From NCBI GenBank assembly GCA_025457965.1, contig JALOTJ010000001.1, positions 1,271 through 65,270 of the forward strand: a stretch of DNA of 64,000 nt, in the 5' to 3' direction. The translations under genes and the position numbers were made by a program. Shown here one piece after another: positions 4,030 to 24,136 of this stretch. Below the pieces are notes generated by a model that saw only the letters and a program-made list of their open reading frames with translations, was not told the origin of the DNA and ran no database searches. The stretch's first letter is position 1; every line of letters starts with the position of its first letter. This DNA comes from Spirochaetota bacterium. Lineage in GTDB: Bacteria > Spirochaetota > UBA4802 > UBA5368.

Positions 4030-4677
4030 TCATCGGTTCTGCAAAATCTGCATCTTGAACATGCCGGCCAGCAGCGAACCGCTCGTCCTCATTTGCTTGA
4101 TTATCTCCTCACGGTTCTTGCCGGGATATTTGCGCAATGTAATCAGCAGGCCATTGAGTGAAGCGATATACATTCGCGCCAGCAGGCGCACATCGCTGTC
4201 CGGATTAAAACGCGTGAAATAGTTTACGATTTCTATCAGGAATACGCGAAAACTTTCGTTTATACTGCTCAGGACCTCATCGTTTAAAGTATCATCGATC
4301 ATGAAGTGGGTGCGCATTTTCAGGTTTTGCTCCTCTCTGGCGAAATGATCAATGATGATCATCGTTATCTCTTCCAGACGGAAATCCTTGCTCGCATTCA
4401 TTTCTTCCATGATCCTGACAAGCAAACGGTTATTGCTGCGAATGTATGCCTCGGCGTAAAGGCACTGCTTGTCGGTAAAATACCGGTAAATTGCCGTTGC
4501 GGTAATACCGGCTTCCTTGGCGATATGCCTCATCGTTACTTTATCGAAAGCCAGTTGCGTAAACACCCGTTCGGCCGCGTTTATGATAAGACTTTTCCTG
4601 TTATCGCGCTCAATTTCCTTTAACTTTGGGAAATTCATAGGTTCATAAACGACAGACTTCTTGTTTGTATGAGCCAT
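4030..4677 (-). CDS. TetR/AcrR-family transcriptional regulator
   Basis: N-terminal HTH RKSLIINAAERVFTQLAFDKVTMRHIAKEAGITATAIYRYF. Starts 3 nt after the stop of the upstream acyl-CoA dehydrogenase. Confidence 0.85.
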   Translation of the reverse strand: MAHTNKKSVVYEPMNFPKLKEIERDNRKSLIINAAERVFTQLAFDKVTMRHIAKEAGITATAIYRYFTDKQCLYAEAYIRSNNRLLVRIMEEMNASKDFRLEEITMIIIDHFAREEQNLKMRTHFMIDDTLNDEVLSSINESFRVFLIEIVNYFTRFNPDSDVRLLARMYIASLNGLLITLRKYPGKNREEIIKQMRTSGSLLAGMFKMQILQNR

Positions 4678-4680
4678 AAT

Positions 4681-5847
4681 TTATTCCCTTGAACTCAGCG
4701 AGAGATTCTCGCCGATGCGTTCCTTTATTGTTTCAACAGATTCAGCACCCGTCAACATGACAAGCGAATCGCGCAAATATCGCTGCGCGTCATATTCCTT
4801 TGCATACCCGTAGCCGCCAAGAACCTGTACGCAATTGAGGGAAGCCGTGCCTGCCGCCTCGACAGCATTAAGACGCGCTATGGCCGACTCGATAGTTATT
4901 TTCTCGCCATGATCATTAAGCCATGCCGCCTGGTAGGTGAGCATCCGGGCGCTCCTTATTTTAATCGCCATATCAACAAGCATATGCCGTACGGCACCGA
5001 AATCGACGATGGGTTTGCCGAACTGGACACGGTCTTTGGCGTACTGGGACGCATACTCGAAAGCCCCCTGTGCCATTCCGACGGCAACGCCGGCAACCTC
5101 AAGGTTCTCGGAATCAATTATACGCTCAAACTGTGTCCAGCCCTGATTGAGCATCTCCGGCCCGCCTAAAATATCCGACGCGCTCACGGCAACATCTTTA
5201 AAGGTGACCTGGCAGAGGTTAATGGAATCGAAGCCCACCTTTTCCATCGCCTGGATGCCTATTCCCTTCTTTTTTGAATCCACGATAAACATCGTCAGCC
5301 CCTGTGTATACTCCTTGCCCTGGTCCGTACATGCCAGTGCAAGGAGGTGGTCCGCCCGATCAGCCAGGCGGACCCATACTTTTGTGCCGCTTAACATAAA
5401 ACCGTCACGGGCAGCGGTGGCAATCGTTTTCACCGGGCTGATGCCGTATGCGTCTTCTTTTTCCCTGAGTGCATAAGCGAACAGAGACTCCCCCTGTACG
5501 AGAGCCGGAAGGAAGCGCCGTTTCTGCTCTTCGCTGCCCATGGCGGAAATGGTGTTTCCCCCGCAGAATGCTGAAGCGATAAACACCGCGGCAAGCGATG
5601 GATACAGGGAGGCAAGCTCTTCAACGACCAGCACCGCTCCCAGGGTATTGGGGCCTCCACCGCCGTATGCTTCCTGAATGGTCAGTCCGCAGAAACCCAT
5701 CTCCTTGATGGTCTTGAAAAGGTCGGAAGGAAACTGCCCCGACTCATCCAGTTTTTTTGCCACATCGCGCTGGCACTCCCTGGAAATAAAATTTTGAATG
5801 GTGTCCCTTATCAATCCCTGTTCTTCACTTAATGCAAAATCCATCAT
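4681..5847 (-). CDS. Acyl-CoA dehydrogenase
   Basis: ACAD fold across the whole length, with C-terminal YAKEYDAQRYLRDSLVMLTGAESVETIKERIG. True start is the ATG pair at 5847/5844 (MMDFALSEEQ) preceded by AAGGAG. The longer ORF in the track to 5979 overlaps the upstream gene. Confidence 0.9.
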   Translation of the reverse strand: MMDFALSEEQGLIRDTIQNFISRECQRDVAKKLDESGQFPSDLFKTIKEMGFCGLTIQEAYGGGGPNTLGAVLVVEELASLYPSLAAVFIASAFCGGNTISAMGSEEQKRRFLPALVQGESLFAYALREKEDAYGISPVKTIATAARDGFMLSGTKVWVRLADRADHLLALACTDQGKEYTQGLTMFIVDSKKKGIGIQAMEKVGFDSINLCQVTFKDVAVSASDILGGPEMLNQGWTQFERIIDSENLEVAGVAVGMAQGAFEYASQYAKDRVQFGKPIVDFGAVRHMLVDMAIKIRSARMLTYQAAWLNDHGEKITIESAIARLNAVEAAGTASLNCVQVLGGYGYAKEYDAQRYLRDSLVMLTGAESVETIKERIGENLSLSSRE

Positions 5848-5914
5848 AAACTCCTTATATTTTTCATTTACCATCGAGGCATACCGGGGAGCCTCCAGCA
5901 CCGCGGATACGCCG

Positions 5915-7486
5915 TCAAACCAGACGGTCCTTCCCTTTCCAGTAGGCCGCCCGCATGTTTTTTTTGTCAATCTTCCCAAGGTTTGTCAGCGGAATCTCTT
6001 TCCAGAATTCCACGCTCTTCGGTACCACCATGCTCCCCTTTTTGTCTTTGACAAACTTTATCAGTTCCTCGGCCGTCGCGGCCTTCCCCTCATAAAGCAC
6101 GACGATTGCTTTAACCTCTTCTCCCCATTTCTCATGCGGCACGCCGATAACGGCGACATTTTTCACCGAGGGGTGCCCATGAAGCACGTCCTCAATTTCG
6201 CGCGGATAAATATTAAAACCACCGCTGATGATCATATCCTTGCATCGGTCTACTATATAGAGGTAACCCTCTTCATCCAGCTTGCCCATGTCGCCGGTAT
6301 GCAGCCAGCCGTTTTTAATGGTCTCGGCCGTGGTTTCCGGGTCCTTTAAATAACCGTCCATCATGTTGATATGCTTTATGATTATCTCTCCGGCTTCTCC
6401 GAGAGACACGTCGCTGCCGTCTTCATTCACGATACGGACCTGGCACGGGAAACATGGTCTGCCGCATGAGCTGAATATACGCCTCTGCCTTTCAGGATCT
6501 TCGATGACGTGCGCCTCTTTTGGCAGACAGCACATCGCCATTGGCGCCTCGGTCTGGCCATAAAGTTGCGTAAACACCGGCCCGAATTTGGTGATCGCCT
6601 GTTTTAGCCGGTCGGGAGCGATGGCCGAGGCTCCATAGATGATATCCCGCCAGCTGCCCGTATCGTACTTGTCGATATCCGGATGGTCCATGAGCACATA
6701 GAGCATCGTTGGGACAAGGAAGGCCGAGGTTATTTTTTCTTTCTGTGTCAGATCCAGGAATTCTTTTGGATCGAAATGATCCATGATAAGGCACGTGCCG
6801 CCCCTGATCAGGACCGGTATCATCAGGCATCCCCCGGCATGCGTCAGCGGAGTCGCGAAGCAGAATACCTCATCATATTCCAGGCGGAATTCGAGGAGCT
6901 CGGTGATGAAGGTCCCCACCCAGGATCGATGCGATAACATGACACCCTTGGGCATTCCGGTGGTCCCCCCGGTGAAATAAATCCCGCACAAATCTTCAGG
7001 CGCAATCTCCACGCCAGGGCTTTCCGCCGGGTGGGTGTCGATGAGCGTCTGTAAATGCAGATGACCCGGGGGAATTTTGGAAGGATCTTCGGAGATACAG
7101 ATGAAGGTCTTCACCGTTTCCAGCTTCGGGATCATCTCCTTTACACGCGACAGCATCTTCTCATGGTAGATAAGCGCCTTGCATTCTGCCTTGTTCATCA
7201 TGTAGATATGATCGTCGTTCGAGAGCAGAACGGCCAGCGGGACCCGCACGATGCCGCATTTTGCCAGGGCGTACTCGGAAAAGACGTACTCGGGACAATT
7301 GGCCATCAGGAAGGAGATGTTGTCATTCTTTTTGAATCCTATTTTACTCAGGGCATTCGCGAGGCGATAGGCCTTGTCCTGCATCTCCGCATAGGTGTAG
7401 CACACATCTCCATATTTGATAGCGCGCTTGTTTTTATAAAACGTCACGCACCGATCATAGAGATCGCCAACATTATGACCCATCAT
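5915..7486 (-). CDS. AMP-dependent acyl-CoA synthetase/ligase
   Basis: AMP-binding motif YFTGGTTGMPKGVMLSHRSW. ATG at 7486 (MMGHNVGDLY) has RBS GGAGGG. Confidence 0.9.
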   Translation of the reverse strand: MMGHNVGDLYDRCVTFYKNKRAIKYGDVCYTYAEMQDKAYRLANALSKIGFKKNDNISFLMANCPEYVFSEYALAKCGIVRVPLAVLLSNDDHIYMMNKAECKALIYHEKMLSRVKEMIPKLETVKTFICISEDPSKIPPGHLHLQTLIDTHPAESPGVEIAPEDLCGIYFTGGTTGMPKGVMLSHRSWVGTFITELLEFRLEYDEVFCFATPLTHAGGCLMIPVLIRGGTCLIMDHFDPKEFLDLTQKEKITSAFLVPTMLYVLMDHPDIDKYDTGSWRDIIYGASAIAPDRLKQAITKFGPVFTQLYGQTEAPMAMCCLPKEAHVIEDPERQRRIFSSCGRPCFPCQVRIVNEDGSDVSLGEAGEIIIKHINMMDGYLKDPETTAETIKNGWLHTGDMGKLDEEGYLYIVDRCKDMIISGGFNIYPREIEDVLHGHPSVKNVAVIGVPHEKWGEEVKAIVVLYEGKAATAEELIKFVKDKKGSMVVPKSVEFWKEIPLTNLGKIDKKNMRAAYWKGKDRLV

Positions 7487-7577
7487 AGCTCTAACCCTCC
7501 ATTTCTTCGTCTTCAGAGCCCACTTGGCCGGCGAGTCACGCGCCGGCAATTCATGGAACATTCCACGAATAAGACAA

Positions 7578-9584
7578 TTATTTATAAAAATCTTTTTTAT
7601 ACAGCTTTACGGAAAGGCCGGTAAGGTCGGCCCATTTCATGGGTCCACCCTTGTCCGCCGGAAAGCCTATGCCCCATATGGCCCCGATATCAATCAGCCG
7701 CGGATCGGCGATTATCTTCTTCTCCAGAAGTTCATGGCCGGTAACCACGAAAGGAGTAAACAGCATCTGCTGAATCTCGGTCTCGCTGTATTCGGCCTTT
7801 TTACCGTCTGGATTGATCAAGGGCAGCACCTCGGGATCAACCTTGCCGTCTTTATCATAATATCCCTTACCGTTTTTGTTGCGACCCAGCCTGCCTGCCT
7901 TATAGACGTTTTCCAGAGAAGGCGGTGCTATCCTCTTGAGCGACTTGGTAAGCACCAGATATGAAGTATCTATTCCGACCTCGTCGGTCAACCGTACCGG
8001 CCCTACGGGGAGTCCAAATTTCATCATGGCGGTGTCGATGCTCTCGATACTTACCCCCTCCGCGAGCAGCTCGTAGGTTTTTATGAAGTATGGGAAAAGC
8101 ATGGCGTTTACCACAAAACCAGGATTGTCATTGCAGACAACCGGACGCTTTCTGAGCGCGGCAGCCAGTGCGATGAGATTATTGATGGTGTCCTCGTTCG
8201 TTTCCTTGCCGCGAATAATTTCCACAAGCTCCATCTTCCATACCGGCGAGAAGAAGTGGATCCCGGCGAAACGACCGGGATTCTTGACGCTTCCGGCAAG
8301 AAGATTGACGGGCAGGCTCGAGGTATTGCTCGCCAGGATACAATTTTCAGAAACTACGCCGCACAGCGACCGGTAGACCTCATCCTTGACCGCCGGGTCC
8401 TCGAACACCGCCTCTATCACCACATCCACGTCCTTAAACTCATCCGTCCATTCCGATACGGGAATAATCAGTTTCATGAGCTGGTCGACTGGCTGCGCGA
8501 GACGGCCCTTTTCAGCCATGCCCTCGAGGACCTTTTGAACCGCCGCTTTTCCGGGCTCGAGCGCCGCCGGGAGATCCTTAACCACAACCGGTTTTTGCAG
8601 TCTCCTCAATATTTCAACTACGATGCCGCGGCCCATGATGCCGAACCCGAGAACGGCGAACTTGTTCATCGATCCGGTCTTGAATCCCTTCGGAATCATC
8701 GTCTGCGGCTTGTCGGAATAGGTCTTCAGAAAGAAGGTATTGATCATGCCCCTGGATTCGGGCGATTTAAGGACATTCATGAAGCACTCGACCTCGAGCG
8801 CAAGCCCCTCCGCAATGGGAACTTTAAGGCCCTCCTTAATGGCCTGGAGCGCGTATTTGGGCCCCGGCAGCTCCCTGCCTCGCGATGCTTTAAGCACTCC
8901 CTTCGTGGCAGTGGCGATCACTTCGTCCAATCCCGCAAAGTCCTGCGCGGGCCTCTTTAGTTCAGCCCTGCCGGATACGATATCATTCGCAAATTCTTTC
9001 GCCGCGGCGAGCAGATCGGCGCTTTCCGGTACGAGTTTGTCAAGCAGCCCGGCTTCGAAACCCTTTTTCGCCGGCATCACCTGACCCTTGAGAATTATTT
9101 CGATCGCGGCATAGCCGATAAGCCGTGGCAGGCGCTGGGTTCCGCCGCCTCCAGGCATGAGGCCTACGGAAATTTCAGGCAATCCCACGAGGGTTTTGGG
9201 GCTGTCGGTGGCGATCCTGGCCGTCATCGCCAGTGCGAATTCGTACCCGCCCCCCATGCACGGTCCGTTGATCGCCGCCACCGTCGGAATGCCGAGGTTT
9301 TCCATCCGCAGGAAGAGTCGACTGAAACGCGTGCACCGTTCCTGGAATTTAGGATAGTCGGTAATGCTGTCTATAAGGGCCAGGTCCCCGCCCGCATGGA
9401 AAGAGCTCTTGCCCGAAATAAATACAACGGCCTTGTAATTCGATTTCTCCCGCTCCAGTCCGGTCAGCACCTCTTCGAAATCAATTACGGCCTGGTCGGT
9501 CCAGGTATTGACCGCCTCTCCGGGCACATCAAAACGAACCACGGCCAGATCATTTTGTTTTTCTAAGATAAATATCTTGGACAT
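7578..9584 (-). CDS. Bifunctional enoyl-CoA hydratase/3-hydroxyacyl-CoA dehydrogenase (FadB/FadJ-like)
   Basis: N-terminal crotonase fold (AVVFISGKSSFHAGGDLALI). Central NAD-binding KFAVLGFGIMGRGI followed by a 3HCDH C-domain. RBS GGAGGA. Confidence 0.9.
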   Translation of the reverse strand: MSKIFILEKQNDLAVVRFDVPGEAVNTWTDQAVIDFEEVLTGLEREKSNYKAVVFISGKSSFHAGGDLALIDSITDYPKFQERCTRFSRLFLRMENLGIPTVAAINGPCMGGGYEFALAMTARIATDSPKTLVGLPEISVGLMPGGGGTQRLPRLIGYAAIEIILKGQVMPAKKGFEAGLLDKLVPESADLLAAAKEFANDIVSGRAELKRPAQDFAGLDEVIATATKGVLKASRGRELPGPKYALQAIKEGLKVPIAEGLALEVECFMNVLKSPESRGMINTFFLKTYSDKPQTMIPKGFKTGSMNKFAVLGFGIMGRGIVVEILRRLQKPVVVKDLPAALEPGKAAVQKVLEGMAEKGRLAQPVDQLMKLIIPVSEWTDEFKDVDVVIEAVFEDPAVKDEVYRSLCGVVSENCILASNTSSLPVNLLAGSVKNPGRFAGIHFFSPVWKMELVEIIRGKETNEDTINNLIALAAALRKRPVVCNDNPGFVVNAMLFPYFIKTYELLAEGVSIESIDTAMMKFGLPVGPVRLTDEVGIDTSYLVLTKSLKRIAPPSLENVYKAGRLGRNKNGKGYYDKDGKVDPEVLPLINPDGKKAEYSETEIQQMLFTPFVVTGHELLEKKIIADPRLIDIGAIWGIGFPADKGGPMKWADLTGLSVKLYKKDFYK

Positions 9585-9685: not shown

Positions 9686-10255
9686 TCAGCATGTTATCTT
9701 CCATTCGCAATACAGTCCGCACCCCAGCGTTTCCGGCGGTATCCTTACCGGTACCGCTTTCATGTTCGGATTAAAGTACGCGGTCTGGAAATCCATCATG
9801 CGCTGTTCAATTACCCGGCAGAAATTTTGCTCGCGGCCCTCGCCTTCCTTCACCAGTGCGTCAATAGTCGGACAACTTGTCGCCCGCATTATCCCATGGC
9901 TCCTGGATAACAGTTCGAGCTCCATGCGAATATTGCCCGCCCAGGCCATGAGCTGGGAGGCTTTGAAAAAGGCCTCGACGTCGTTACCGGTGATATTGAA
10001 CATCCGGGTGAGGTGTTTGAGCTCATAGCGCATGTGCTTTTCCCATACCCAGAGGTCCATCTCCATCGCTATCTCGTTGCCGAAGCGTTCTTTGGCCGCA
10101 AGGTACCAGAATCCATCCACCGCCAGAAACATCTTGCGGTAAAGATCGAGGCCTTTCAGTCTCATCTCTTCGCTGAAGGAGTCCCAGGTTAAATCCGGCC
10201 TGAATTCGCCGGCGTAATCAGTCATGCCCCCCATCTCATCCTCCGATGTTTGCAT
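9686..10255 (-). CDS. Conserved hypothetical protein with a C-terminal Cys cluster, inside the acyl-CoA operon
   Basis: 189 aa ORF with protein-like composition. Possible starts at 10255, 10234 or 10225. No family recognised with confidence. Confidence 0.55.
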   Translation of the reverse strand: MQTSEDEMGGMTDYAGEFRPDLTWDSFSEEMRLKGLDLYRKMFLAVDGFWYLAAKERFGNEIAMEMDLWVWEKHMRYELKHLTRMFNITGNDVEAFFKASQLMAWAGNIRMELELLSRSHGIMRATSCPTIDALVKEGEGREQNFCRVIEQRMMDFQTAYFNPNMKAVPVRIPPETLGCGLYCEWKITC

Positions 10256-10280
10256 ATTCCCCGGGGAATCTCGCTTATTT

Positions 10281-11299
10281 TTATACGCCCTTCAACCCCA
10301 CCGATTTGCTGATAATATTTTTCTGTATCTGGGTGGTCCCACCGCCGATGGAGAGAATCAGAATATCGCGAAGGTATCGCTGCATATCATAATCCATGGA
10401 AGAGCCGTCCGGACCGAGAATATTGACGCCCTGTCTGATGATGTTTTTACTCGTTTCCGCGGCGAAATACTTGCACATCGAGGTCTCTTTGGTCGGCGAG
10501 TACCCGGCGGCCTCTTTCCAGGCCGTGGCATAGGCGAAGGTCCGGGCCACCTCCAGCTCGGTGGCCATCTTTGCCAGGGTGTGCTGAATCGCCTGGGTAT
10601 CGGCCAGGGGATTGCCGCGCTGCAGCTTAGCGATCGCGTATTCGAGGGCGTCTTCATACGCCGCCTGGGCCATTCCGATCGCGCACGCGGACAGCACGAG
10701 CCGCTCCTGGTTCAGCAGCTTCATCTCCTGCTTCCAGCCATTATTGAGCCCCTTTTCCTGCCCGCCAAGTATGTACTGGGGCAACACCTTTACGCTGTCG
10801 TAATACACCTCGCAGGTATTCGACCCGTGATAGCCCAGCTTGTCGATCTCCTTTGTCGAGTATCCCTCCTGCTTCGTGTCCACGATAAACGACGTGATGC
10901 CGCCGTATTTCGACGGGCTCGTGCGGGCGAAGGTTATCGTGTATCGCCCCTGGTCAACTTCGGCAGGAACTCCTTCTTCTGTTCCGGGCTGCCGTTCACC
11001 GATATTATTTCATTTCCGTACAGGAGTATGTTCCCCAGGGACCAGCAGAGAACCGGCAGTCTTCTGGATATCTCTTCGAATATTATCATGAGATCGAAGA
11101 TATCCCCATCCATACCCCCATATTCCCCGGAGATATTAATTCCGCAGAGACCCATATCGACGAACTTCCTGACCAGGTCCATGGGAAATTTGCCTTCACG
11201 GTCTACTTCACGGGCCTTCTCGCGAGGGATTTCCCTCTCGACATAACTCCGTACACGCTCCCGCAGCTGGTCCTGTTTTTCACTGAATTTGAAATCCAC
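10281..11299 (-). pseudogene. Acyl-CoA dehydrogenase pseudogene with a frameshift and an internal deletion of about 60 aa
   Basis: N-terminal ACAD domain (GTG 11299 to stop at 10934, ending EQKKEFLPKLTRGDTR). The same gene resumes in another frame at 10883 with YTITFARTSPSKYGGITSFIVDTKQEGYS, which is the ACAD mid-domain, and runs to 10281. The segment carrying the xAFALTEPxAGSD motif is absent. RBS AAGGAGAT before the GTG. Confidence 0.75.
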
Positions 11300-16189: not shown

Positions 16190-16198
16190 ATAATCCCC

Positions 16199-17644
16199 CT
16201 ATTTCTTTATCCCGGCCATGTCCTCGACGAGTTTCTTCGATTTGGCGATGATCTTTTTCGCTTCCATGAGAATTGTCATGCGCTCGGCGAACGGGGAGCC
16301 TTCTCCGTGCAGGCAGATCGTCTCGAGGTCACCTGCCGTCAGACGCCTTACCAGGTCGAACATGCGCAGCCGGTTCTCGGTGGAAACCTCGGGATTCGCC
16401 TGGAGATATTTTTCAATATCAGCGTGGGTTTCCGGGTTCTGCCAGTCGCGATATGTCGGCGCGGTGACGAGAAGGCCACCGGCGAGGTCCTGGATGATTT
16501 CCACGATCTTGTGATAGTTATGCGCGAAGTGATATTTCGCGATGTTGGTAGTGATCGGGTTCGGCACCGGTATCCCCGCGTGCATGACATAATCCAGACA
16601 TGCAGAACGCGACAGCGCGGTAAGGGTCTCAAGGTAAATGACGATCTCGGTGATCTTCTCCTTGACGTGCGGCGCGCCGGAAATGCCGTTATAGTCGGCG
16701 ATGGCGACGGCGATCCCAAGGAGTTGCTCGCTCATCGGTATACGATAGGCGCAGCCCGTTCTGCGGTGCATGAGGGCGAAATTATACACGCAGGTGGCGG
16801 CAACCTGCCACTCTCCGCAGAGGAAAACCCTGTCCCACGGTACAAAGACATCGTCAAAGATTATAAGCGAGTCGGTGTGCATCCTCCGAAGCTCGCTTCC
16901 AACGGGAAACTCATCGACGCTTATTCTGCCATGGAACGGGCGCACAATCTGGCGTATGCCTTTGGCATTGGCCGGAACGGCAACGGCCACCGCGTAGTCA
17001 CTGTCCTCGGGACCGCTCAGCGCGCGACACGGGATGGCGAAAAATTCATGGCAATAGGCGGCGCCTGTAATGTGAACCTTCGCGCCCCGGAGAACTATGC
17101 CATCCTTACGCTTCTCGACGATACGCAGGTTGAAATCAGGGTGCGCCTGTTTCGGATCCGATGGCCGAAGATGACGGTCACCCTTCACGTCGGTCACGCC
17201 CGCGACCACGCACTTGTCGGTCTTCTGAAGATACTTGCGATACTTCTCTATCCGCTCCAGATAAACCTTGCCGGCATCTCCGAGACTACGGGCTGTTATT
17301 GCGATCGCGTTCATCGCGTCGGCGCCGATATCGTGCGCAAGCGGAATATAGCCGTCGCCCAACTCGGTGGCCTTGATGATCAGATCAAGGTGCTTGAGTA
17401 GATCCTCGCCGTTCTTGGGCACATAATAATAACGGCTGATATTCTCGCCAAGCTCCTCATCATACACAAGCGCCAGATCTTTGTACTGCGGGTCCTCGGA
17501 CATATGATAATCGACGGCCACGGTTTCCACACAGGCTTTAAGATCCGGATCTTCGGCGACGTTTTCGATCTTCCTGCCCTTGTAGTATACAATTCTTCCG
17601 TCGTTTAAACTTGTCTTATATTCTTCCGGCGTCATTAAACCCAT
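16199..17644 (-). CDS. HpaB/AbfD-family flavoenzyme (4-hydroxybutyryl-CoA dehydratase/vinylacetyl-CoA isomerase-like)
   Basis: About 480 aa, the length and general composition of this family, with Cys/His residues placed as in AbfD (CVVAG, AAYCHEFFAIPC). Family call made from memory of AbfD; it is not motif-proven. RBS GGGAAGAGG. Confidence 0.65.
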   Translation of the reverse strand: MGLMTPEEYKTSLNDGRIVYYKGRKIENVAEDPDLKACVETVAVDYHMSEDPQYKDLALVYDEELGENISRYYYVPKNGEDLLKHLDLIIKATELGDGYIPLAHDIGADAMNAIAITARSLGDAGKVYLERIEKYRKYLQKTDKCVVAGVTDVKGDRHLRPSDPKQAHPDFNLRIVEKRKDGIVLRGAKVHITGAAYCHEFFAIPCRALSGPEDSDYAVAVAVPANAKGIRQIVRPFHGRISVDEFPVGSELRRMHTDSLIIFDDVFVPWDRVFLCGEWQVAATCVYNFALMHRRTGCAYRIPMSEQLLGIAVAIADYNGISGAPHVKEKITEIVIYLETLTALSRSACLDYVMHAGIPVPNPITTNIAKYHFAHNYHKIVEIIQDLAGGLLVTAPTYRDWQNPETHADIEKYLQANPEVSTENRLRMFDLVRRLTAGDLETICLHGEGSPFAERMTILMEAKKIIAKSKKLVEDMAGIKK

Positions 17645-17752: not shown

Positions 17753-19378
17753 CTACCAGTTCTTAATCCTTGCCGGCATGGCACGGTGATATGGCTTGAA
17801 GACCTTTTCTTCCATGCTGGATCCCATCATGCTGTCCACGCAAAGCGCCGCGCTCAATGCCGCCGCATCCACGCCGCAACCCCACAGGCGCTCGCCGTAC
17901 TGGTCGCCGGCGAAATACAGGCCATCGACCATCTGGGATTTAACATCGATCCGATCGTATCCGATCGGCTGGATCCAGGCAAAGGCGTGGTCGCTGCACA
18001 TCCACAGCATGAAGTCCATATCAGAATTCCACTTGTCGGCGCCGAAGGTCCTCTTCCACCAGTTCTCATTCCATTCCATCACCCGGGAGACCTTGTGCGG
18101 GTTCCGCATTTCCTCATGCGTCATGGCGGTTGAGAATATCCAGCCGTGCCTGTCCTCGGGCGCGGCCCCGGTCTCCTTGGTCAGACCGGGATTGGAATTG
18201 CTGCCCTTAGCCGTAGAGGCCAGGTTCCACAACACCATGTCAACGCATCCGCTGTAGCCTTCCTCCGCTCCGATGATATCCGGCATGTATATGAAGCTTC
18301 TTTCCTCGATGCCCTTCGCCGCCCAGACATCCGACTTCATGTTGCCGAACCCGGTAATCATGCCTGCCCCCCAGAATTCCTTCTGGACCCGGTCGACCAA
18401 CTCCTGAGGGAAGTAACGGGGATGGATCACATTCAGCATCTGCTTGGAGGGTATATTGCAGACCACCTTATCGGCATAGACCGTTTTTATACCGTCCGCG
18501 GTCTGATACGTTACGCCCTTAACCGCGCTGTTCTCGATGATCACCTCAACGACATTGGCGTTTCGCTGCACCTTTCCGCCCTTTTCATTCAGAACCTGCT
18601 CCATTAAAAGGGCGAATGAGATGGTGCCGGGATTGGCGACGGTGGCGCATGAGCCCTCAACCAGGTTCATCTTGATGTCGCCCGCGATGCACATATGGCC
18701 AAGTACGTCCGGCGCCGGGGTCATTCTAAGATCGGCCTGGCCCGTCTGGGACGCCGCAAGGACCTTTATGTAGTCATAGGCTTCCTTGTGTACGTTTCTC
18801 GCCTGCAGCCACTCCTCGAAAGACATATGCGCCGTCTGCGCAACATCATGGAATGTCATGGTGGCCATGTCCCTGAGGGCCCTCATGGTCGACTTGAAGC
18901 CCTCCGGGCTCATCCACCCGTATGGTTCGCCCTTGCCCACCTGATAGGCCTTGTTGCCTTTCTTGCAATCGACAAAAGCGAAGCCGACATTGCAGGGCAT
19001 ATCGACCGGTTTCTCGAGATAGTCCATCAGGTTGCGGATTTTGCCCTTATTGCCCCAGAACAGGCCGTGTCCGGTATCGAGCGTGGTGCCGTCGAACAGG
19101 CCCTTTTCGAAGCAGGTAGTGAGGTCCGGCGTACATTTCGGCACCCACGCGCCGATCAGGCCGAGGGCGCGCCTGAAACCGTTGGCGTCCAGCTCGAGCC
19201 CGTCGATGCTTACCTTGTTTCCCTTGCCGACAAACGACGCCAGACGCCCGCCGATAAACGGGGCCTTCTCGAGGACAAGCACCTTCTGATTGAAGTCCTT
19301 CGCGAGCAGGGCCGCGGAACCGAGTCCCGCCACACCGGAGCCGATGATGATAACATCATATTGTTTTTCTTTTGCCAT
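17753..19378 (-). CDS. FAD-dependent oxidoreductase of the phytoene-desaturase (CrtI-like) superfamily
   Basis: YDVIIIGSGVAGLGSAALLA dinucleotide-binding motif. 541 aa amine-oxidase/desaturase-like fold. RBS AAAGGTGA. Confidence 0.8.
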   Translation of the reverse strand: MAKEKQYDVIIIGSGVAGLGSAALLAKDFNQKVLVLEKAPFIGGRLASFVGKGNKVSIDGLELDANGFRRALGLIGAWVPKCTPDLTTCFEKGLFDGTTLDTGHGLFWGNKGKIRNLMDYLEKPVDMPCNVGFAFVDCKKGNKAYQVGKGEPYGWMSPEGFKSTMRALRDMATMTFHDVAQTAHMSFEEWLQARNVHKEAYDYIKVLAASQTGQADLRMTPAPDVLGHMCIAGDIKMNLVEGSCATVANPGTISFALLMEQVLNEKGGKVQRNANVVEVIIENSAVKGVTYQTADGIKTVYADKVVCNIPSKQMLNVIHPRYFPQELVDRVQKEFWGAGMITGFGNMKSDVWAAKGIEERSFIYMPDIIGAEEGYSGCVDMVLWNLASTAKGSNSNPGLTKETGAAPEDRHGWIFSTAMTHEEMRNPHKVSRVMEWNENWWKRTFGADKWNSDMDFMLWMCSDHAFAWIQPIGYDRIDVKSQMVDGLYFAGDQYGERLWGCGVDAAALSAALCVDSMMGSSMEEKVFKPYHRAMPARIKNW

Positions 19379-19443
19379 TTTCGATCACCTTTATGTTCTT
19401 CAAGTAGTTATACGAATACCGCACTCAAATGTTTTCCCGCATC

Positions 19444-20208
19444 CTATATCGAACCGCCCCCGTCCGCCACGAGGATCTGGCCGGTCATGTACGATGACGC
19501 TTCGGAAACCAGGAACAGGGCGATCCTGCCGATTTCCTCGGGCATGGCGATCCTCCGTAGCGGTGTATGCGACAATTCCTGTTTCATCAGGCTCTCATTG
19601 CTCCACAGGGCCTGGCTGAACTTGGTCTTCACCACTCCGGGGGCGATGGCATTTACGCGTACGCCGAATTCACCCAGCTCCTTCGCCATGGCGCGGGTGA
19701 GCATGCCTATGCCCGATTTACTGATGCAGTAGAGACCCAGCCCGATATCGGGGCTCACTCCTCCTACCGAGGAGATGTTAAGGATATTGCCCGATTTCTG
19801 CTGCTGCATGATCTTTCCCACCAGCATGCTGGTCAAGGTGTATCCCTTGAGGTTGGTGACCATGATCTGGTCGTACATCTTCTCATCCATATCGACCATA
19901 AGCCCCATGCCCGGGTTCGTGGCCGCATTATTGACAAGAATGTCGATCCTGCCGAATTCTTTCATTACGGCGTCCACCAGCACTTTGATCGTCTCGGCGT
20001 CCCGGTTATGGTAGGCAACCGCCAGGGCCTTGCGACCCATGGCGCGAATTTTTTCAGCCACAACGTCAAGGTCCGCCTGTTTCCGGCTCCCCACGACGAC
20101 ATCCGCCCCCGCATCGGCCAGCGCCAACGCAACGGCTTCGCCAATACCACGGCTGCCGCCGGTAACCAGCGCGACTTTCCCTTTTAATGACAAATACGAT
20201 GTATCCAT
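19444..20208 (-). CDS. SDR-family oxidoreductase (3-oxoacyl reductase-like)
   Basis: KVALVTGGSRGIGEA. NNAATN. YCISKSGIGMLTRAMA. ATG at 20208 has RBS GGAGGG. Confidence 0.85.
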   Translation of the reverse strand: MDTSYLSLKGKVALVTGGSRGIGEAVALALADAGADVVVGSRKQADLDVVAEKIRAMGRKALAVAYHNRDAETIKVLVDAVMKEFGRIDILVNNAATNPGMGLMVDMDEKMYDQIMVTNLKGYTLTSMLVGKIMQQQKSGNILNISSVGGVSPDIGLGLYCISKSGIGMLTRAMAKELGEFGVRVNAIAPGVVKTKFSQALWSNESLMKQELSHTPLRRIAMPEEIGRIALFLVSEASSYMTGQILVADGGGSI

Positions 20209-20278
20209 AGCAGTCCCTCCTGAATAATTAGTACCTGTACTGATGAAACCATGCACTGAGCGTCAATCAGCATGCCAT

Positions 20279-20331
20279 CAATAGTAACATATGTTAACAC
20301 CGTTTACACAAGTTAACATTGTTGTCAATAG
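20279..20331. promoter_or_regulatory. Composite palindromic operator: CAATAG-TAACAT-ATGTTAAC-N13-GTTAACAT-TGTTGT-CAATAG
   Basis: Perfect 8 bp inverted repeat ATGTTAAC (20291-20298) and GTTAACAT (20312-20319), flanked by direct CAATAG repeats. Lies between the acyl-CoA synthetase stop (20345) and the SDR start (20208). A related motif, AACATAAGTTAACAC, occurs at 24270-24284. Confidence 0.45.
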
Positions 20332-20344
20332 TTTTTTTCCCGCC

Positions 20345-22183
20345 CTATACAATCTCGGTCCCATTTTCAACATACATCTCATCGATGATGGATGAATACT
20401 TCGAGGTGACGACCCGCCTTTTGAGTTTGAGAGTGGGCGTCAGCTCTCCGGTCTCCTGTGTCCATTCATTGACAATAATACGGTATTTCTTTATCTGCTC
20501 CACCCGGCCGAATCCACGCATCCTCCCCGAGATTTCGCCTTCATATAGATCCCGGACCTGCTGATTCGCGAGGAGAGCGTCTCTCGAGTCGAAAACGATT
20601 CCCTTCTGTGCGGCCCATGCCTCAAGCTCGAGGAAGGCAGGAACGATAAGGGCCGTCAGATACTTTCTGTTATCGCCGATAATGGCGACCTGCTCGATAT
20701 ACGGGGATTCCTTCAGGGCGTTCTCGAGGTTCTGCGGTGCAATATTCTTGCCACTCGATGTGATGATGAGGTCCTTTATACGCCCCGTAATTATAAGGTT
20801 GCCGCCGTCATCGATCATCCCGGTATCGCCGGTTTTAAGAAATCCGTCGCTTGTGAAGGCCTCACGGGTCGCTTCCTCGTTCTTATAATACCCGACCATC
20901 AGCTGCGGCCCCTTTATGAGGATCTCACTCTCCGGCCCTATCTTCACGATCGTGTTTTTCACCGCGCGGCCCACGGTCCCGAGCCGTATGTGGCCGAGAG
21001 TGTTGAAATTCGTCACCGGGGATGTCTCCGAAAGACCGAACCCTTCGACGATGCTGATGTCCATGCCGATAAAAAACTGGGCGTCCAGCGGGTTGAGCGG
21101 CGCCCCTCCGCAACCGACATACAGCAGGCAGTCGATTCCCAGAGCGGCCTTAAGCTTGGAGAATATCAGCTTGTTGGCCAGCCGGTATTCGATGGCGAAA
21201 AGCCCCTTTCTCTTAACGCCGTTGCAAACATAGGGCATATTGCGCCTTCCGACCGACATCGCCCAGCCAAAAAGCGTCCTCTTGACCGCGGAAGCACCGG
21301 CGACTTTTGCGTACACCCCGGCCCGGATTTTTTCGAGCAGCCTGGGAACCGTGGCTATGAGCGTCGGCTTCGAGAGCTTCAGATCATCGAGCACGGTGTT
21401 GATGCTTTCCGCAAAGTACACTTTTATGGCGGCGAAAATCCCGCCATAGTAGACCAGCGTACGCTCGAAGATATGTGAGAGCGGGAGAAACGAAAGGACC
21501 CTCTGTTCATTGTTGATGAATTCCGGAAAGGCCGAGTAGTGCTGATCGATGTTGGTAATGATGTTGCGGTGCTTCAGCATGACGCCCTTCGGATCACCCG
21601 TCGTGCCCGAGGTGTAAATAAAGGTGATAATGGAGTCCGGATCGATCGCGTTGAGGCGTTTATCAAAGACGCCTTTGTCTTTGGCCTTTTTTCCGGCCTC
21701 AAGGGCCTCCCCGAAAGTCTTCGCCCCCTTGATCTTTTGATCGATTTCATCGAAAACGACGATATCGATCAGCTGCGGAAGGTCTTTACGAATCTCCATC
21801 ACCTTGTCGAGGTGCTCCCTGGTGCCCACGAAGCATATTCGCGAATCGGAATTGTTGAGGATATAGCGGGCCTCCTCCGGGGTGTTGGTGGCGTAAATCG
21901 GGACGGTGGTGGCGCCGATGGATATCGACCCCATGTCCGAAACCCACCACTCGTAGCGGTTCGGCGAAAAAATGGCGACCTTGTCCCCCGGGTTAATGCC
22001 CATGGAAACGCAATAAAGCCCTATCGCGCGCACCATCTCGTTCATCTGGTTCCATGAGATATCCTCGAAGGTGCCCTCCCTGGTTTTCTTCGCCACACAG
22101 GCCTTGTCGCCCATTTCCTTCACGCGTCGCTGAAAAATCTCCGGAATCGTCGTCGTGTTCGTTATTGTCGTATCTACTCTCAT
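20345..22183 (-). CDS. Long-chain fatty-acid--CoA ligase (AMP-forming)
   Basis: YTSGTTGDPKGVMLKHRNI AMP-binding motif. 612 aa. RBS GGGGGAGGGG. Confidence 0.9.
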   Translation of the reverse strand: MRVDTTITNTTTIPEIFQRRVKEMGDKACVAKKTREGTFEDISWNQMNEMVRAIGLYCVSMGINPGDKVAIFSPNRYEWWVSDMGSISIGATTVPIYATNTPEEARYILNNSDSRICFVGTREHLDKVMEIRKDLPQLIDIVVFDEIDQKIKGAKTFGEALEAGKKAKDKGVFDKRLNAIDPDSIITFIYTSGTTGDPKGVMLKHRNIITNIDQHYSAFPEFINNEQRVLSFLPLSHIFERTLVYYGGIFAAIKVYFAESINTVLDDLKLSKPTLIATVPRLLEKIRAGVYAKVAGASAVKRTLFGWAMSVGRRNMPYVCNGVKRKGLFAIEYRLANKLIFSKLKAALGIDCLLYVGCGGAPLNPLDAQFFIGMDISIVEGFGLSETSPVTNFNTLGHIRLGTVGRAVKNTIVKIGPESEILIKGPQLMVGYYKNEEATREAFTSDGFLKTGDTGMIDDGGNLIITGRIKDLIITSSGKNIAPQNLENALKESPYIEQVAIIGDNRKYLTALIVPAFLELEAWAAQKGIVFDSRDALLANQQVRDLYEGEISGRMRGFGRVEQIKKYRIIVNEWTQETGELTPTLKLKRRVVTSKYSSIIDEMYVENGTEIV

Positions 22184-22273
22184 GACCCCTCCCCCTTGTT
22201 GTTGTTATTTTTTTCTGATTGTTCCACCCGTCTTTCTCCGCGCGCCGCGCGGGGAGACGGCGACTGCCGCCCT

Positions 22274-24136
22274 TCAGGCGCTCGCGAAGCTCTCCTCGAA
22301 AATCTCGACGACGCTGATGTCTTCGCTCTTGATGGCCCTCACCACGGCATAGACCTCCGGAAGCACGTTCTTTATAAAGTACCTGGCGCTCGAAAGCTTC
22401 CCGGAGTAGAAGGCCGCGTCCCTGTTCTCCTTGACGAACGAGGCCCACGCGATCATATCGGCCGGGTTGACCTTGTTCGATTTCCCGATGGCGTCGAGTT
22501 TCCCCTTCGCGATACCTGCCTGCCACACGAGGATCCAGGCGCAGACTATCTTTCCCATCATCATCAGGAACGGATAGGCGTGTGCGATCGGCACAAAGAA
22601 CTTTCCCTGCTTGCCGCACTGGGCGAAAAACATTCCAACCTCGCCCAGGGCGTTGACGGCCTCCTGAAAATCCGGGACGAGATCGGGAAGCGCGTCCCTG
22701 TACAGCGCTATCGTGGAGCTCATCTCGGTCAGGAGCGCCATGAAGTACGCGCCCTTTTTCATCCCCAGCTTGCGGCCCACCAGGTCGAGCGACTGTATGC
22801 CGTTCGCCCCCTCATAGATGGACGCGATCTTCTCATCACGCATGAACTGGCATATCGGATAGTCCTCGCAGTACCCGTACCCGCCGTACACCTGCATGGC
22901 CAGCTCGGTGATTTTAAAACCGACGTCCGAGCAGTAGGCCTTGCAGATGGGCGTCAGCAGTTCCAGCACGCCGTTCCACTTGTCCTTCTCGGCATCGTCC
23001 TTCGCGACGGTCTCCCTGTCGATCGCGGACGCGGCGTAATACATAAGCCCCCTCATCGCGTCGACGTTCGACTTCATCCACAGCAGCATGCGCCGGACAT
23101 CCGGATGCTGAACGATCGGCACGCGCGGGGCCTCGGGGTTCTTCATGTCGAGCAGCGACGAACCCTGCAGCCGCTCCCTGGCATAGGAGAGGGCGTGCAG
23201 GTACGCCGTCGAAGCGCTCGTCAATCCCTGCATGCCGACGCTTATGCGGGCCTCGTTCATCATCTGGAACATGATCTTCATGCCCTGCCGCTCCCCGCCG
23301 AGGAGCTCGGCGTAGCAGTCGTCGTTGTCGCCGAAGTTTATGAGGCAGGTCGCGCTGCCGTGGATGCCCAGCTTCTCCTCGATCTTTCCGATCTCGTAGT
23401 CGTTGCGCCGTCCCAGGCTCCCGTCGTCGTTGACCAGGTATTTTGGGACAAGGAAGATCGAAATGCCCCCCGTTCCGGCGGGATCGCCTTCAATCCGCGC
23501 CAGGACCGGGTGTACGACGTTGTTCACCAGGTCGCTGTCGCCCACCGTAATGAACAGCTTGGTACCCTTAATCCGAAACGTTCCGTCGGGCTGCCGTATG
23601 GCCTTTGTCGTCAGGCTGCCGACGTCCGTCCCCGCGGCGGGCTCGGTGAGACACATCGTGCCGCCGAACTCGCCGGTAACCATTCTCGAGAAGTAGCGCT
23701 TTTTCTGGTCTTCCGTGCCGTAGGTAAGAACGAGGTGGGCCGCCCCCTCGGCAAGCCCCGGATACGACAGGAAGGAGAAATTATGCGCGAACCAGTCCAT
23801 CGAGGCGAAGCGGATGACCTGGGGCAGGCCCTGACCGCCGTACTCCTGGGGAAAGCACATCGAGTTCCACCCGCCCTCGACGAAGAGCTTATAGGGCCGG
23901 TGAAAACACTCCGGCACGTGCACCTGGCCATTCTCCAGTCGGCACCCCTGCTCATCCGACTCCTTAAGGGTGGGGAAGATCTCCTTGACCGCCAGCTTCT
24001 GCGCTTCGCCCATGATCATATCGAAGGTTTCGGTCGAGAAATCAGCGAAGTGCGGGGATTCGCACAGCGTCCCCACGTTGAGCATCTCATTCAGTACAAA
24101 TTGCTGGTCCCTCTCGTCCAAGATCAAATTTGCCAT
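22274..24136 (-). CDS. Large acyl-CoA dehydrogenase (about 620 aa, FadE/AidB-like, with an extended C-terminal domain)
   Basis: ACAD core (MCLTEPAAGTDVG; YGGYGYCEDYPICQFMRDEKIASIYEGANGIQSLDL). ATG at 24136 has RBS GGGAGGGG. First gene of the co-directional cluster. Confidence 0.9.
   Translation of the reverse strand: MANLILDERDQQFVLNEMLNVGTLCESPHFADFSTETFDMIMGEAQKLAVKEIFPTLKESDEQGCRLENGQVHVPECFHRPYKLFVEGGWNSMCFPQEYGGQGLPQVIRFASMDWFAHNFSFLSYPGLAEGAAHLVLTYGTEDQKKRYFSRMVTGEFGGTMCLTEPAAGTDVGSLTTKAIRQPDGTFRIKGTKLFITVGDSDLVNNVVHPVLARIEGDPAGTGGISIFLVPKYLVNDDGSLGRRNDYEIGKIEEKLGIHGSATCLINFGDNDDCYAELLGGERQGMKIMFQMMNEARISVGMQGLTSASTAYLHALSYARERLQGSSLLDMKNPEAPRVPIVQHPDVRRMLLWMKSNVDAMRGLMYYAASAIDRETVAKDDAEKDKWNGVLELLTPICKAYCSDVGFKITELAMQVYGGYGYCEDYPICQFMRDEKIASIYEGANGIQSLDLVGRKLGMKKGAYFMALLTEMSSTIALYRDALPDLVPDFQEAVNALGEVGMFFAQCGKQGKFFVPIAHAYPFLMMMGKIVCAWILVWQAGIAKGKLDAIGKSNKVNPADMIAWASFVKENRDAAFYSGKLSSARYFIKNVLPEVYAVVRAIKSEDISVVEIFEESFASA

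Follow-up and report, generated by a model that had tools for sequence, protein, structure and literature searches.

The window analysed here, a 64,000-nucleotide stretch of a Spirochaetota bacterium contig, contains a run of 17 minus-strand genes from a large acyl-CoA dehydrogenase (ACAD) to a methyl-accepting chemotaxis protein (MCP). On balance, we think that this run (2372 to ~24300) is a horizontally acquired island encoding a modified beta-oxidation of a CoA-activated acid that the ordinary cycle cannot finish. The cassette is real and conserved, was probably transferred horizontally, and is a variant of known beta-oxidation-type systems. By analogy with characterised enzymes, the modified route is best read as suited to beta-blocked and/or gamma-functionalised acyl-CoA. 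The leading candidate substrates would be methyl-branched acids and fatty acids with an oxo or hydroxy group in mid-chain; breaking down such acids would need exactly the functions found in the cassette.

The block was said in the original prediction to hold 17 consecutive minus-strand genes in a given order, and the open reading frame (ORF) list and translations agreed, with an unbroken run from 24241 down to 2372 (Table 1). When gene starts were set by orthologue lengths, the 16 intergenic gaps were, in transcription order, 90, 133, 65, 108, 9, 11, 33, 13, 46, 56, 25, 101, 88 (or 16), 70, 3 and 59-101 nt. The gaps had been described as mostly under 20 nt, which proved too tight: only four to five of the 16 are that short, with a median of ~60 nt, a maximum of ~133 nt and none above ~135 nt. 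The TetR gene does start 3 nt past the stop of the last ACAD gene (4681 vs 4677), and the MCP gene does follow it, although at 2372-3970 it falls outside the 4030-24136 first assigned to the cluster. Pfam supported all gene families with E-values from 1e-9 to 1e-79, and the protein originally called hypothetical is present and belongs to DUF6125. As for the enzyme names given before, every one held at the Pfam domain level, but AbfD, 3-hydroxy-3-methylglutaryl-CoA synthase (HMGS, given as HMGCS) and the second thiolase failed on their catalytic residues, and CrtI held as a superfamily statement only. The beta-oxidation set is complete, as had been claimed, with acyl-CoA synthetase (ACS), ACAD, enoyl-CoA hydratase, 3-hydroxyacyl-CoA dehydrogenase and a thiolase (Thl1) whose motifs are intact; Pfam and NCBIfam both support it. 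The standard cycle consists of two acyl-CoA synthetases, two intact ACADs, a FadB-like enzyme and this catalytically complete thiolase of SCP-x/archaeal type. The unusual accessory enzymes announced for the cluster are there as well.

The window was compared with metagenome contigs and genomic loci labelled L001-L095. Scanning metagenome contigs with the window FtsK led to L090, a 218-kb contig from a related spirochaete. Its FtsK, RNase J and GntR are 77%, 85% and 76% identical to those of the window. In L090, the genes o299-GalK-EAL-o278-RNaseJ-FtsK-TPM-TPM-NTR-GntR are contiguous and the cassette is absent. Nucleotide homology between the two ends at ~2074, within the NTR gene, and restarts at 25652; the palindromes of the NTR promoter, which reach to 2294 in the window, are also present in L090. 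Because L090 has the flanking genes adjacent without the cassette, the whole block from MCP to large ACAD (21.9-23.3 kb, TetR and MCP included) is an insertion relative to the L090 genome. The AbfD-like matches had at first pointed to Syntrophales as the host, which was rejected on the evidence of UvrB. UvrB of the same window had relatives at 72-99% identity, every named one (72-93%) being labelled Spirochaetota or Spirochaetes, and the closest labelled homologues of the cassette genes came from Syntrophales and 'Deltaproteobacteria' (80-86% identity), those at 85% or more being unlabelled. The GC content at third codon positions was lower only in the MCP-to-DUF6125 half of the block (0.59-0.68 vs 0.73-0.82 in host genes). 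A beta-oxidising spirochaete is not unprecedented, since a 2026 survey lists metagenome-assembled genomes (MAGs) of the Spirochaetota class UBA4802 as candidate syntrophic degraders of butyrate and long-chain fatty acids (PMC13248872).

The AbfD-like protein was used as bait for homologues, their contigs and 80 genomic loci, onto which all window proteins were then mapped. The order SDR / AbfD-like / thiolase-like / DUF35 / MaoC / ACAD / FadB (SDR, short-chain dehydrogenase/reductase) recurred in several phyla: in Desulfobacterota (Syntrophales or 'delta proteobacterium' L003, L007, L008 and L089, Syntrophaceae L011, Desulfomonilaceae L009), in Bacillota (Desulfovirgula L016/L088, Syntrophomonas L017) and in Chloroflexota (L012, L014). 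The homologues are thus syntenic rather than scattered in relatives, which was one of the checks named in the original prediction. Carriers of the cassette are anaerobes that oxidise fatty acids, most of them syntrophs. In Desulfovirgula L088, the order is almost that of the window and includes DUF6125 and a large ACAD following FadB. The string Thl2-DUF35-MaoC-ACAD, with FadB beside it or close, was found in L003, L007, L008, L089, L011, L016/L088, L017 and L094; its four genes are contiguous in at least seven related loci and in the window, where the ACAD is a pseudogene, and in no relative is MaoC separated from DUF35 and Thl2. The pair formed by Thl1 and the HMGS-like::DUF35 fusion also occurs in L003, L089, L011, L088, L094 and L095, and the flavoprotein in L005, L006, L009-L012, L014, L016, L017, L087, L094 and L095. 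In every orthologous locus (at least 57% identity) with usable flanks, the SDR gene adjoins the AbfD-like gene or lies at most one gene away, and the pair is usually accompanied by the flavoprotein and/or a FabK-like FMN reductase. The tight pairing is limited to these orthologous cassettes: over the whole branch of AbfD relatives lacking the Fe-S ligands, SDR adjacency was seen in only 15 of 51 loci. The FabK-like reductase, of the NMO family (TIGR03151, 171 bits), is 60-84% identical among nine loci (L003, L006, L007, L009, L012, L016/L088, L017, L087, L089) and often sits between Thl1 and Thl2. Another frequent member among relatives is a Liv-type ABC importer, whose genes, one for a Peripla_BP_6 binding protein included, surround the ACS1 homologue. 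Genes for MBL-fold hydrolases recur near the cassette in L003, L006, L017 and L087.

The cassette of L094, whose AbfD-like protein is 85% identical to ours, has the same NMO-less, flavoprotein-containing order as the window together with an intact ACAD of 389 aa. As judged from these alignments, this layout is a stable variant, since L094 shares it with an intact ACAD; the idea that loss of the FabK-like gene is a sign of decay is weakened accordingly. Flavoproteins of Syntrophomonas UBA1368 and L087 share 82-89% identity with that of the window, but the AbfD-like proteins next to them reach only 66%. Syntrophales cassettes without the flavoprotein, in contrast, encode AbfD-like proteins of 80-83% identity. 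The cassette is, by sequence identity, a mosaic. A literature search found no published description of the cassette or of Fe-S-less AbfD relatives.

Table 1. Features of the minus-strand block in transcription order, with positions in the window
Feature	Coordinates	Strand	Support and remarks
53-nt imperfect palindrome, outer arms ATTAATGAT / ATCATTAAT	24244-24296	.	110-160 nt upstream of first ATG (repeat search)
Large ACAD (~620 aa) with Acyl-CoA_dh_C extension, first gene of block	22274-24136	-	Pfam; mechanical ORF extends to TTG 24241
Acyl-CoA synthetase 1 (ACS1), long-chain (FadD11-like), AMP-binding_C_3	20345-22183	-	Pfam; NCBIfam FadD11 371 bits, below cut-off
Classical SDR (Ser/Tyr-x3-Lys)	19444-20211	-	Pfam adh_short_C2 1.5e-58
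FAD-dependent oxidoreductase (flavoprotein), amine-oxidase / phytoene-desaturase / GDI superfamily	17753-19378	-	Pfam Amino_oxidase 5e-10 (residues 17-514), NAD_binding_8 5e-10
AbfD-like: AbfD/HpaB-family flavoprotein, Fe-S-less clade	16199-17644	-	Pfam HpaB_N 5e-75, HpaB 8e-54
HMGS-like::DUF35: HMGS/PhlA-like domain fused to C-terminal DUF35	14732-16189	-	PDB PhlA-type 9skh 5e-37, 5m3k 2e-35; archaeal HMGS 6esq_I 7e-24; DUF35 6esq_E 5e-12
Thl1, SCP-x/archaeal-type thiolase	13512-14720	-	NCBIfam PRK06157 686 bits (cut-off 403)
Thl2, thiolase-fold protein without nucleophilic Cys	12294-13478	-	PDB 4u4e 4e-65, CtSal 9myr 1e-45, TcLtp2 6ok1 3e-36
Stand-alone DUF35 (rubredoxin-like Zn ribbon and OB fold)	11858-12280	-	Pfam zf-ChsH2 2e-16, OB_ChsH2_C 1e-22
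(R)-specific enoyl-CoA hydratase of MaoC type, one hot-dog domain	11356-11811	-	Pfam MaoC_dehydratas 4e-19
ACAD pseudogene	10281-11299	-	N-terminal part 10934-11299 and C-terminal part 10281-10883 in different frames
DUF6125 protein	9686-10255	-	Pfam PF19620 8e-9; same position in L088 (Desulfovirgula) and L094
FadB/FadJ-like enoyl-CoA hydratase / (S)-3-hydroxyacyl-CoA dehydrogenase	7578-9584	-	Pfam ECH_1, 3HCDH_N and 3HCDH
Acyl-CoA synthetase 2 (ACS2), PRK06187 long-chain-fatty-acid--CoA ligase subfamily	5915-7489	-	Pfam AMP-binding 2e-79; alternative ATG 7561
ACAD3, 387 aa from ATG	4681-5844	-	Pfam ACAD N/M/C; mechanical ORF up to TTG 5979
TetR-family regulator	4030-4677	-	Pfam TetR_N 2.5e-14; start 3 nt after ACAD3 stop
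Methyl-accepting chemotaxis protein, last gene of block	2372-3970	-	Pfam MCPsignal 4e-31, C-terminal domain

The AbfD-like protein aligned end to end with AbfD of C. aminobutyricum (1U8V residues 2-490, 4e-71) and also matched the Nitrosopumilus enzyme 6VJR (4e-61); an identical protein is encoded on two short metagenome contigs. In AbfD, the [4Fe-4S] cluster is held by C99, C103, C299 and H292, and T190, E257, Y296 and E455 are catalytic (bioRxiv 10.1101/2020.02.05.935528). Three of the four ligands are missing from the window protein, with no Cys counterpart of C99, Asp for C103 and Tyr for C299, and only H292 kept. Likewise, three of the four catalytic residues are replaced (E257 by Asp, Y296 by Gly, E455 by Ile) and T190 is kept as Thr or Ser. 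These replacements were identical in all 19 orthologues (65-97% identity), in whose alignment His104, Asp105, His293, Cys298 and Tyr300 are invariant. Among the AbfD-like relatives in the 80 loci (L007-L086), the canonical C/C/H/C ligand set was found in a minority, and a large branch with Asp or Glu at position 103 and Tyr at 299 spans Dehalococcoidia, Actinomycetota, Asgard archaea, Methylomirabilota, Binatia and others. A further, Desulfobacterota-rich branch in the same loci keeps C103 and has Lys or Arg at position 299. Two annotated loci of distant Fe-S-less clades (L014, L020) showed no common theme among their neighbouring genes, naive ORF calls being unreliable at high GC.

What the window protein shares with AbfD (1U8V, 6VJR) is thus the same two Pfam domains end to end, H292, T190 and a neighbourhood of CoA-ester enzymes; it differs by the three lost ligands, by the changes at E257, Y296 and E455 and by an SDR partner in all orthologous cassettes. 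Because the replacements are invariant across orthologues, the AbfD-like protein is, as far as its sequence tells, a conserved distinct clade with a different active site and no decayed gene, and the substitutions indicate a new function instead of inactivation. The canonical 4-hydroxybutyryl-CoA dehydratase function (EC 4.2.1.120 / 5.3.3.3) was ruled out by the ligand and catalytic substitutions, and the earlier naming as an AbfD-type enzyme cannot be kept in the sense of the known dehydratase. Inactivating substitutions in the AbfD-like or CrtI-like gene had been named as a sign against the proposed pathway. Formally the AbfD-like protein carries such changes, but they are invariant in orthologues and the FAD motifs of the flavoprotein are intact. 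In public metagenome annotation, the name '4-hydroxybutyryl-CoA dehydratase' is attached to thousands of members of this clade. This enzyme is commonly used as a marker of 4-hydroxybutyrate pathways; for the Fe-S-less clade such use is unsafe because its proteins lack the cluster ligands, and the AbfD family as a whole looks unsafe as a marker in metagenomes. The partner SDR is closest to DHRS4-type carbonyl reductases (PDB 2hq1; DHRS4 2zat/3o4r/5ojg).

The flavoprotein had been called CrtI-like. It has an N-terminal FAD-binding beta-alpha-beta motif and a two-domain Amino_oxidase-type fold, the Pfam Amino_oxidase match being weak although it covers the full length. The carotenoid NCBIfam models gave only 27-40 bits against cut-offs of 283-1000, over the first ~50 residues only, and no NCBIfam model reached its cut-off. 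The AlphaFold2 (AF2) model was of high confidence (pLDDT 92), and its best Foldseek matches were 3ka7 (an uncharacterised archaeal oxidoreductase), monoamine oxidases (MAO) and Rab GDP-dissociation inhibitor (GDI), with TM-scores of 0.5-0.63 and at most 16% identity to solved structures. No structure of CrtI or of the phytoene desaturase PDS was among the top 50 Foldseek hits, and the PDB sequence match to PDS 5mog had an E-value of 0.003. Inspection of the sequence showed intact FAD motifs, 30 homologues share ~80 invariant positions, and the homologue family is found in anaerobes at 50-89% identity, with no characterised close relative. The protein is predicted from sequence and model to be functional and to bind FAD. 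The name CrtI is valid at the superfamily level only, as the resemblance is no closer to CrtI or PDS than to MAO or GDI.

Next to the AbfD-like gene are encoded an HMGS-like domain fused to DUF35 and then Thl1. Compared with archaeal HMGS (6esq_I), the HMGS-like domain keeps the Glu (DED) and has Gln for the Cys, Pro for the His and Asp for the Asn; in orthologues, the Cys and His positions vary (Leu or others), with neither a conserved Cys nor a conserved His. The domain cannot be the HMGCS it had been taken for, and a cleavage of HMG-CoA synthase or lyase type by it, as suggested by work on limonene, was ruled out by the missing Cys, His and Asn. PhlA and MucA lack the E-C-H-N tetrad too, and PhlC and MucB keep CxS and GHx and lose HDxF (PMC12960953). 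By analogy, the fusion looks like a PhlA-type scaffold, presumably for Thl1, whose motifs (NYCASG, HDCF, CFGHP) are complete and conserved in orthologues. The two proteins are, from their motifs, a hybrid in which a catalytically complete thiolase stands beside a dead HMGS fused to DUF35, and we infer that they may form a scaffolded thiolase complex. As in the archaeal thiolase/HMGS/DUF35 complex (6esq/6et9), PhlACB and MucABC, a thiolase-fold protein, an HMGS-like protein and DUF35 are encoded side by side, and the HMGS-like part is nearest to PhlA. In contrast, Thl1 keeps the HDCF of true archaeal acetoacetyl-CoA thiolases that PhlC and MucB have lost, DUF35 forms the C-terminal part of the HMGS-like protein, and the context is catabolic and not mevalonate or antibiotic synthesis.

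Thl2, listed before as a second thiolase, has Gly at the position of the thiolase Cys, its GGSS aligning with A-C-A-S of thiolase 7yvy. Without the nucleophile, a role as a true thiolase was ruled out. Its motifs GGSS, YDSY (residues 290-293, in place of HDCF) and SQGHTGAGG are invariant in eight orthologous loci. In the bile-acid aldolase Sal the motif reads YDCY, Tyr302 acting as the base and Cys304 as the acid, and a C304S variant was inactive; in Ltp2 it reads YDHF, with Tyr294 and the acid Tyr344. Each has a MaoC hydratase and DUF35 as partners (PMC12329534). Thl2 shares with both the Gly and the Tyr of the YDxY/F motif; its YDSY lacks the Cys304 of Sal and the His of Ltp2. By its anatomy, Thl2 resembles a retro-aldolase of the Sal/Ltp2 kind and is a candidate for such activity, although each of the characterised aldolases has one defining feature that Thl2 lacks. 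The stand-alone DUF35 is presumed to be its partner. MaoC showed similarity below the NCBIfam cut-offs to the PaaZ hydratase domain and to RipB/Ich. The grouping of ACAD, MaoC hydratase, DUF35 zinc ribbon/OB protein and thiolase-fold protein recalls ChsE1-E2/ChsH1-H2/Ltp2 of Actinobacteria and Shy/Sal of Comamonas testosteroni. Unlike in these steroid systems, the window DUF35 is a separate 140-aa protein unfused to the hydratase, MaoC is a single hot-dog domain of 151 aa, the hosts of the cassette are strict anaerobes and there are no further steroid genes nearby.

This likeness bears on the original suggestion of a non-standard, possibly isoprenoid substrate, which can be made specific: an isoprenoid, terpenoid, alicyclic or steroid-side-chain-type acid could be degraded. 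The SCP-x thiolase would then release propionyl-CoA at alpha-methyl branches and the hydratase-aldolase unit acetyl-CoA at tertiary, beta-methyl carbons, and the flavoprotein would saturate or shift isoprenoid double bonds. Thl2, DUF35, MaoC and ACAD do mirror the ChsE/ChsH/Ltp2 and Shy/Sal modules, Thl1 is of SCP-x type and the flavoprotein superfamily includes carotenoid desaturases and isomerases. Moreover, cleavage of a C-C bond at a tertiary alcohol by an HMGS-superfamily enzyme was proposed in the CoA pathway of anaerobic limonene degradation (PMC12583861). However, the HMGS-like domain here is catalytically dead and the flavoprotein is no nearer to CrtI than to MAO or GDI. The island also has no ring-cleaving hydrolases, carboxylases or enzymes for ketone or aldehyde products, steroid degradation would require many more genes, and the constant pair of SDR and AbfD-like protein is left unexplained. 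We hold such a substrate to be decidedly unlikely.

A gene of the same architecture as the large ACAD follows FadB in L088, with further homologues of 51-54% identity in L007 and L045. The FadB-like protein has orthologues of 50-65% identity in nine related cassettes. ACS2 passes the NCBIfam cut-off for PRK06187 (487 vs 476 bits), with orthologues of 61-68% in L007, L008 and L089, and all NCBIfam matches of ACAD3 were below cut-off, with orthologues of 44-52% in L007, L008 and L017. The ACS1 counterpart lies in the Liv-type ABC transporter operon in several relatives, an operon absent here. The single-sequence AF2 model of the DUF6125 protein was unusable (pLDDT 42).

As the main alternative, the block could be an ordinary long-chain beta-oxidation operon whose extra genes are auxiliaries for unsaturated fatty acids. 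For this, the AbfD-like protein would keep only the delta3,delta2-enoyl-CoA isomerase activity of vinylacetyl-CoA type; the SDR, the flavoprotein or, in relatives, the FabK-like reductase would be a 2,4-dienoyl-CoA reductase or a double-bond isomerase/saturase, and MaoC would serve the D-3-hydroxy 'epimerase' route. AbfD is bifunctional and includes an isomerase activity, and the Fe-S-less clade retains the HpaB/ACAD fold, T190 and H292. The FabK-like enoyl-thioester reductase is near-constant in the cassettes of relatives, but its gene is missing from the window. The eukaryotic 2,4-dienoyl-CoA reductase is an SDR giving 3-enoyl-CoA, and the amine-oxidase-fold FAD enzymes include linoleate isomerase; the window SDR, however, with its classical Tyr-x3-Lys, is carbonyl-reductase-like rather than like a dienoyl-CoA reductase. 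ACS1 is of long-chain type, and the hosts of the cassette include Syntrophomonas, Syntrophales and Desulfomonilaceae, taxa that, like Spirochaetota UBA4802, are discussed as long-chain fatty-acid degraders. Against this, the binding-protein ABC importer beside ACS1 of relatives suggests a substrate more soluble than long-chain fatty acids, and neither the unit of ACAD, MaoC, DUF35 and Cys-less thiolase nor the SCP-x-type thiolase complex would have a role. Altogether, an operon of this kind seems rather unlikely.

One gene of the block is broken, and the ACAD pseudogene of the original prediction was borne out. In a tblastn search with the intact 380-aa orthologue of a Syntrophales MAG (L003), residues 1-119 matched in one frame and 166-380 in another, with the junction at ~10943. 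The deletion, of ~140 nt and not a multiple of three, removed residues ~120-165, including the start of the middle domain. The contig L001, otherwise 100% identical, runs through the junction with the expected ...GEIMFSFAITEPNAGSDA... stretch. Since L001 retains the deleted stretch, the lesion is, on this comparison, recent, strain-specific or an assembly error in the source. The island in this genome might be an eroding, largely non-functional remnant, for which the frameshifted module ACAD would speak, as would the absence from the 64-kb window of the FabK-like gene and the binding protein present in most relatives. This is nevertheless very unlikely: none of the 16 remaining genes is disrupted, all being full-length ORFs with conserved motifs, L094 combines the NMO-less order with an intact ACAD, the near-identical L001 keeps the undeleted sequence, and two other ACADs of the island could substitute.

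For the reading that we favour, a horizontally acquired modified beta-oxidation, the following route may be proposed. The standard enzymes would run the usual cycle, with HMGS-like::DUF35 scaffolding Thl1 as in the archaeal thiolase/HMGS/DUF35 and PhlACB assemblies. The ACAD / MaoC / DUF35 / Thl2 unit would carry out dehydrogenation, hydration and then retro-aldol cleavage of a beta-hydroxyacyl-CoA resistant to oxidation and thiolysis, possibly a tertiary carbinol from a beta-branched chain, with ChsE/ChsH/Ltp2 and Shy/Sal as precedents on steroid side chains. The SDR and AbfD-like pair would handle a gamma (C4) function: the SDR would interconvert 4-oxo- and 4-hydroxyacyl-CoA, and the AbfD-like protein would turn the 4-hydroxy (or 3-enoyl) ester into 2-enoyl-CoA, with His104, Asp105, His293, Cys298 and Tyr300 replacing the [4Fe-4S] Lewis acid. 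In the Lva pathway for levulinate (PMC6692424) and in ACAD10/11 (PMC10802472), an SDR and an ACAD-fold enzyme act on 4-oxo/4-hydroxyacyl-CoA and a kinase is needed; no kinase is present in the island. The pair could thus be a cluster-free, ATP-independent counterpart of LvaD/LvaABC and ACAD10/11. Its likeness to LvaABCDE and to mammalian ACAD10/ACAD11 is a functional one only, made of an acyl-CoA synthetase, a C4-acting SDR and an ACAD-fold flavoenzyme leading to enoyl-CoA; there, in contrast, a kinase makes the 4-phospho leaving group and the flavoenzyme is a true ACAD, not HpaB/AbfD. With its (R)-hydratase of MaoC type, SDR and SCP-x-type thiolase beside an L-specific FadB, the cassette also recalls the peroxisomal D-specific beta-oxidation of 2-methyl-branched acids (MFE-2 and SCP-x), from which it differs in that its SDR is linked to the AbfD-like protein and not to MaoC, its proteins are separate and there is no racemase.

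Several observations weigh against this route. All reaction assignments beyond the family level are made by analogy, and no characterised orthologue was found for the SDR, the AbfD-like protein, the flavoprotein, Thl2 or HMGS-like::DUF35. To our knowledge, elimination of a 4-hydroxyl without a Lewis acid or phosphorylation is unprecedented, and residues important in AbfD, E455 and Y296, are Ile and Gly here. Thl2 has Ser at the Cys304 position of Sal, the very change that inactivates Sal, and His at the Tyr344/Gln352 position. The ACAD of the aldolase-like module is broken in this genome, and the FabK-like gene and ABC transporter of most relatives are absent from the entire 64-kb window, so the pathway may be incomplete here. 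Repeat and tRNA searches found no att-like flanking direct repeats, integrase or tRNA at the borders of the island, and no integrase or transposase domain was found by Pfam among the ORFs scanned; the nearest and only tRNA is a tRNA-Val (cac) at 34770-34844 (+), ~10 kb from the island border and away from the insertion site. Finally, scans for promoters and terminators inside the block gave results no better than those for shuffled sequence.

Two solutions to gamma-functionalised acids are already known, the radical [4Fe-4S] AbfD and the kinase-plus-ACAD systems LvaABC and ACAD10/11. Taken together, the Fe-S-less AbfD clade (Asp/Glu103, Tyr299, His292) and its adjacent SDR could be a third solution to gamma-hydroxy and gamma-oxo acids, a cluster-free and kinase-free 4-hydroxyacyl-CoA dehydratase system, within an undescribed anaerobic pathway that horizontal transfer would have carried into syntrophs of four or more phyla, spirochaetes among them. 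We regard this joint proposal as unlikely; if true, substrates could be, for example, 10-hydroxy- or 10-oxostearate and the monomers of cutin and suberin. Mid-chain oxygenated, unsaturated and methyl-branched acids make up a large share of the lipid input to sediments, peat and digesters, and the anaerobic completion of their beta-oxidation is poorly known. The cassette offers a candidate gene set for it, in an order conserved over Desulfobacterota, Bacillota, Chloroflexota and a spirochaete, and new enzyme variants: an Fe-S-less AbfD relative, a candidate thiolase-like aldolase with YDSY and an active-type thiolase with a dead HMGS-DUF35 scaffold. The island would also illustrate how catabolic capacity passes between syntrophic guilds.

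Regulation and sensing would be provided by the TetR and MCP genes, whose position inside the block is consistent with both belonging to the inserted unit. A trio ACAD-TetR-MCP also lies beside the cassette in L087, at identities of only 34% and 29%. The half-site of the 53-nt palindrome occurs twice at 24244-24296 and once elsewhere in the 64 kb (0.14 expected), and a promoter-like match (24276-24248) overlaps it. We infer from these sequence features that the palindrome is a candidate operator/promoter region for the island TetR, which would regulate the block from there, upstream of its first gene. A hydropathy scan of the MCP gave about six hydrophobic segments in residues 40-201 and no periplasmic domain; such a protein would therefore suit a membrane-soluble ligand, and the membrane-embedded MCP might direct chemotaxis toward the substrate.

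Other minus-strand ORFs lie beyond the cluster at 94-906, 1108-2229 and 24718-25332. The last, located between TPM and the island, encodes 204 aa that begin with a signal-peptide-like stretch and match no Pfam family; L090 has a second TPM paralogue there and no counterpart of this protein. The product of 1108-2229 is an Acg-family FMN oxidoreductase with a Tat-like N-terminus. Upstream of its gene are two 16-nt palindromes, TAGAGTAATAGCTCTA and TAGAGTATATGCTCTA (2253-2294), a pair conserved in L090 (15875-16278) and probably the operator of the neighbouring GntR/FadR-like regulator (94-906). No genes for electron-transfer flavoprotein were identified within the 64-kb window. An FeS oxidoreductase with Fer4 and two CCG domains (HdrD-like; 47293-49422, +) adjoins a membrane H+-pyrophosphatase (49504-51855, +), both being typical of syntrophic fatty-acid oxidisers. 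Finally, a SAM riboswitch (Rfam RF00162, 89 bits) was found at 46727-46831 (-), upstream of 45474-46670 (-), whose product, judged by eye, resembles a MetX-type homoserine O-acetyltransferase.

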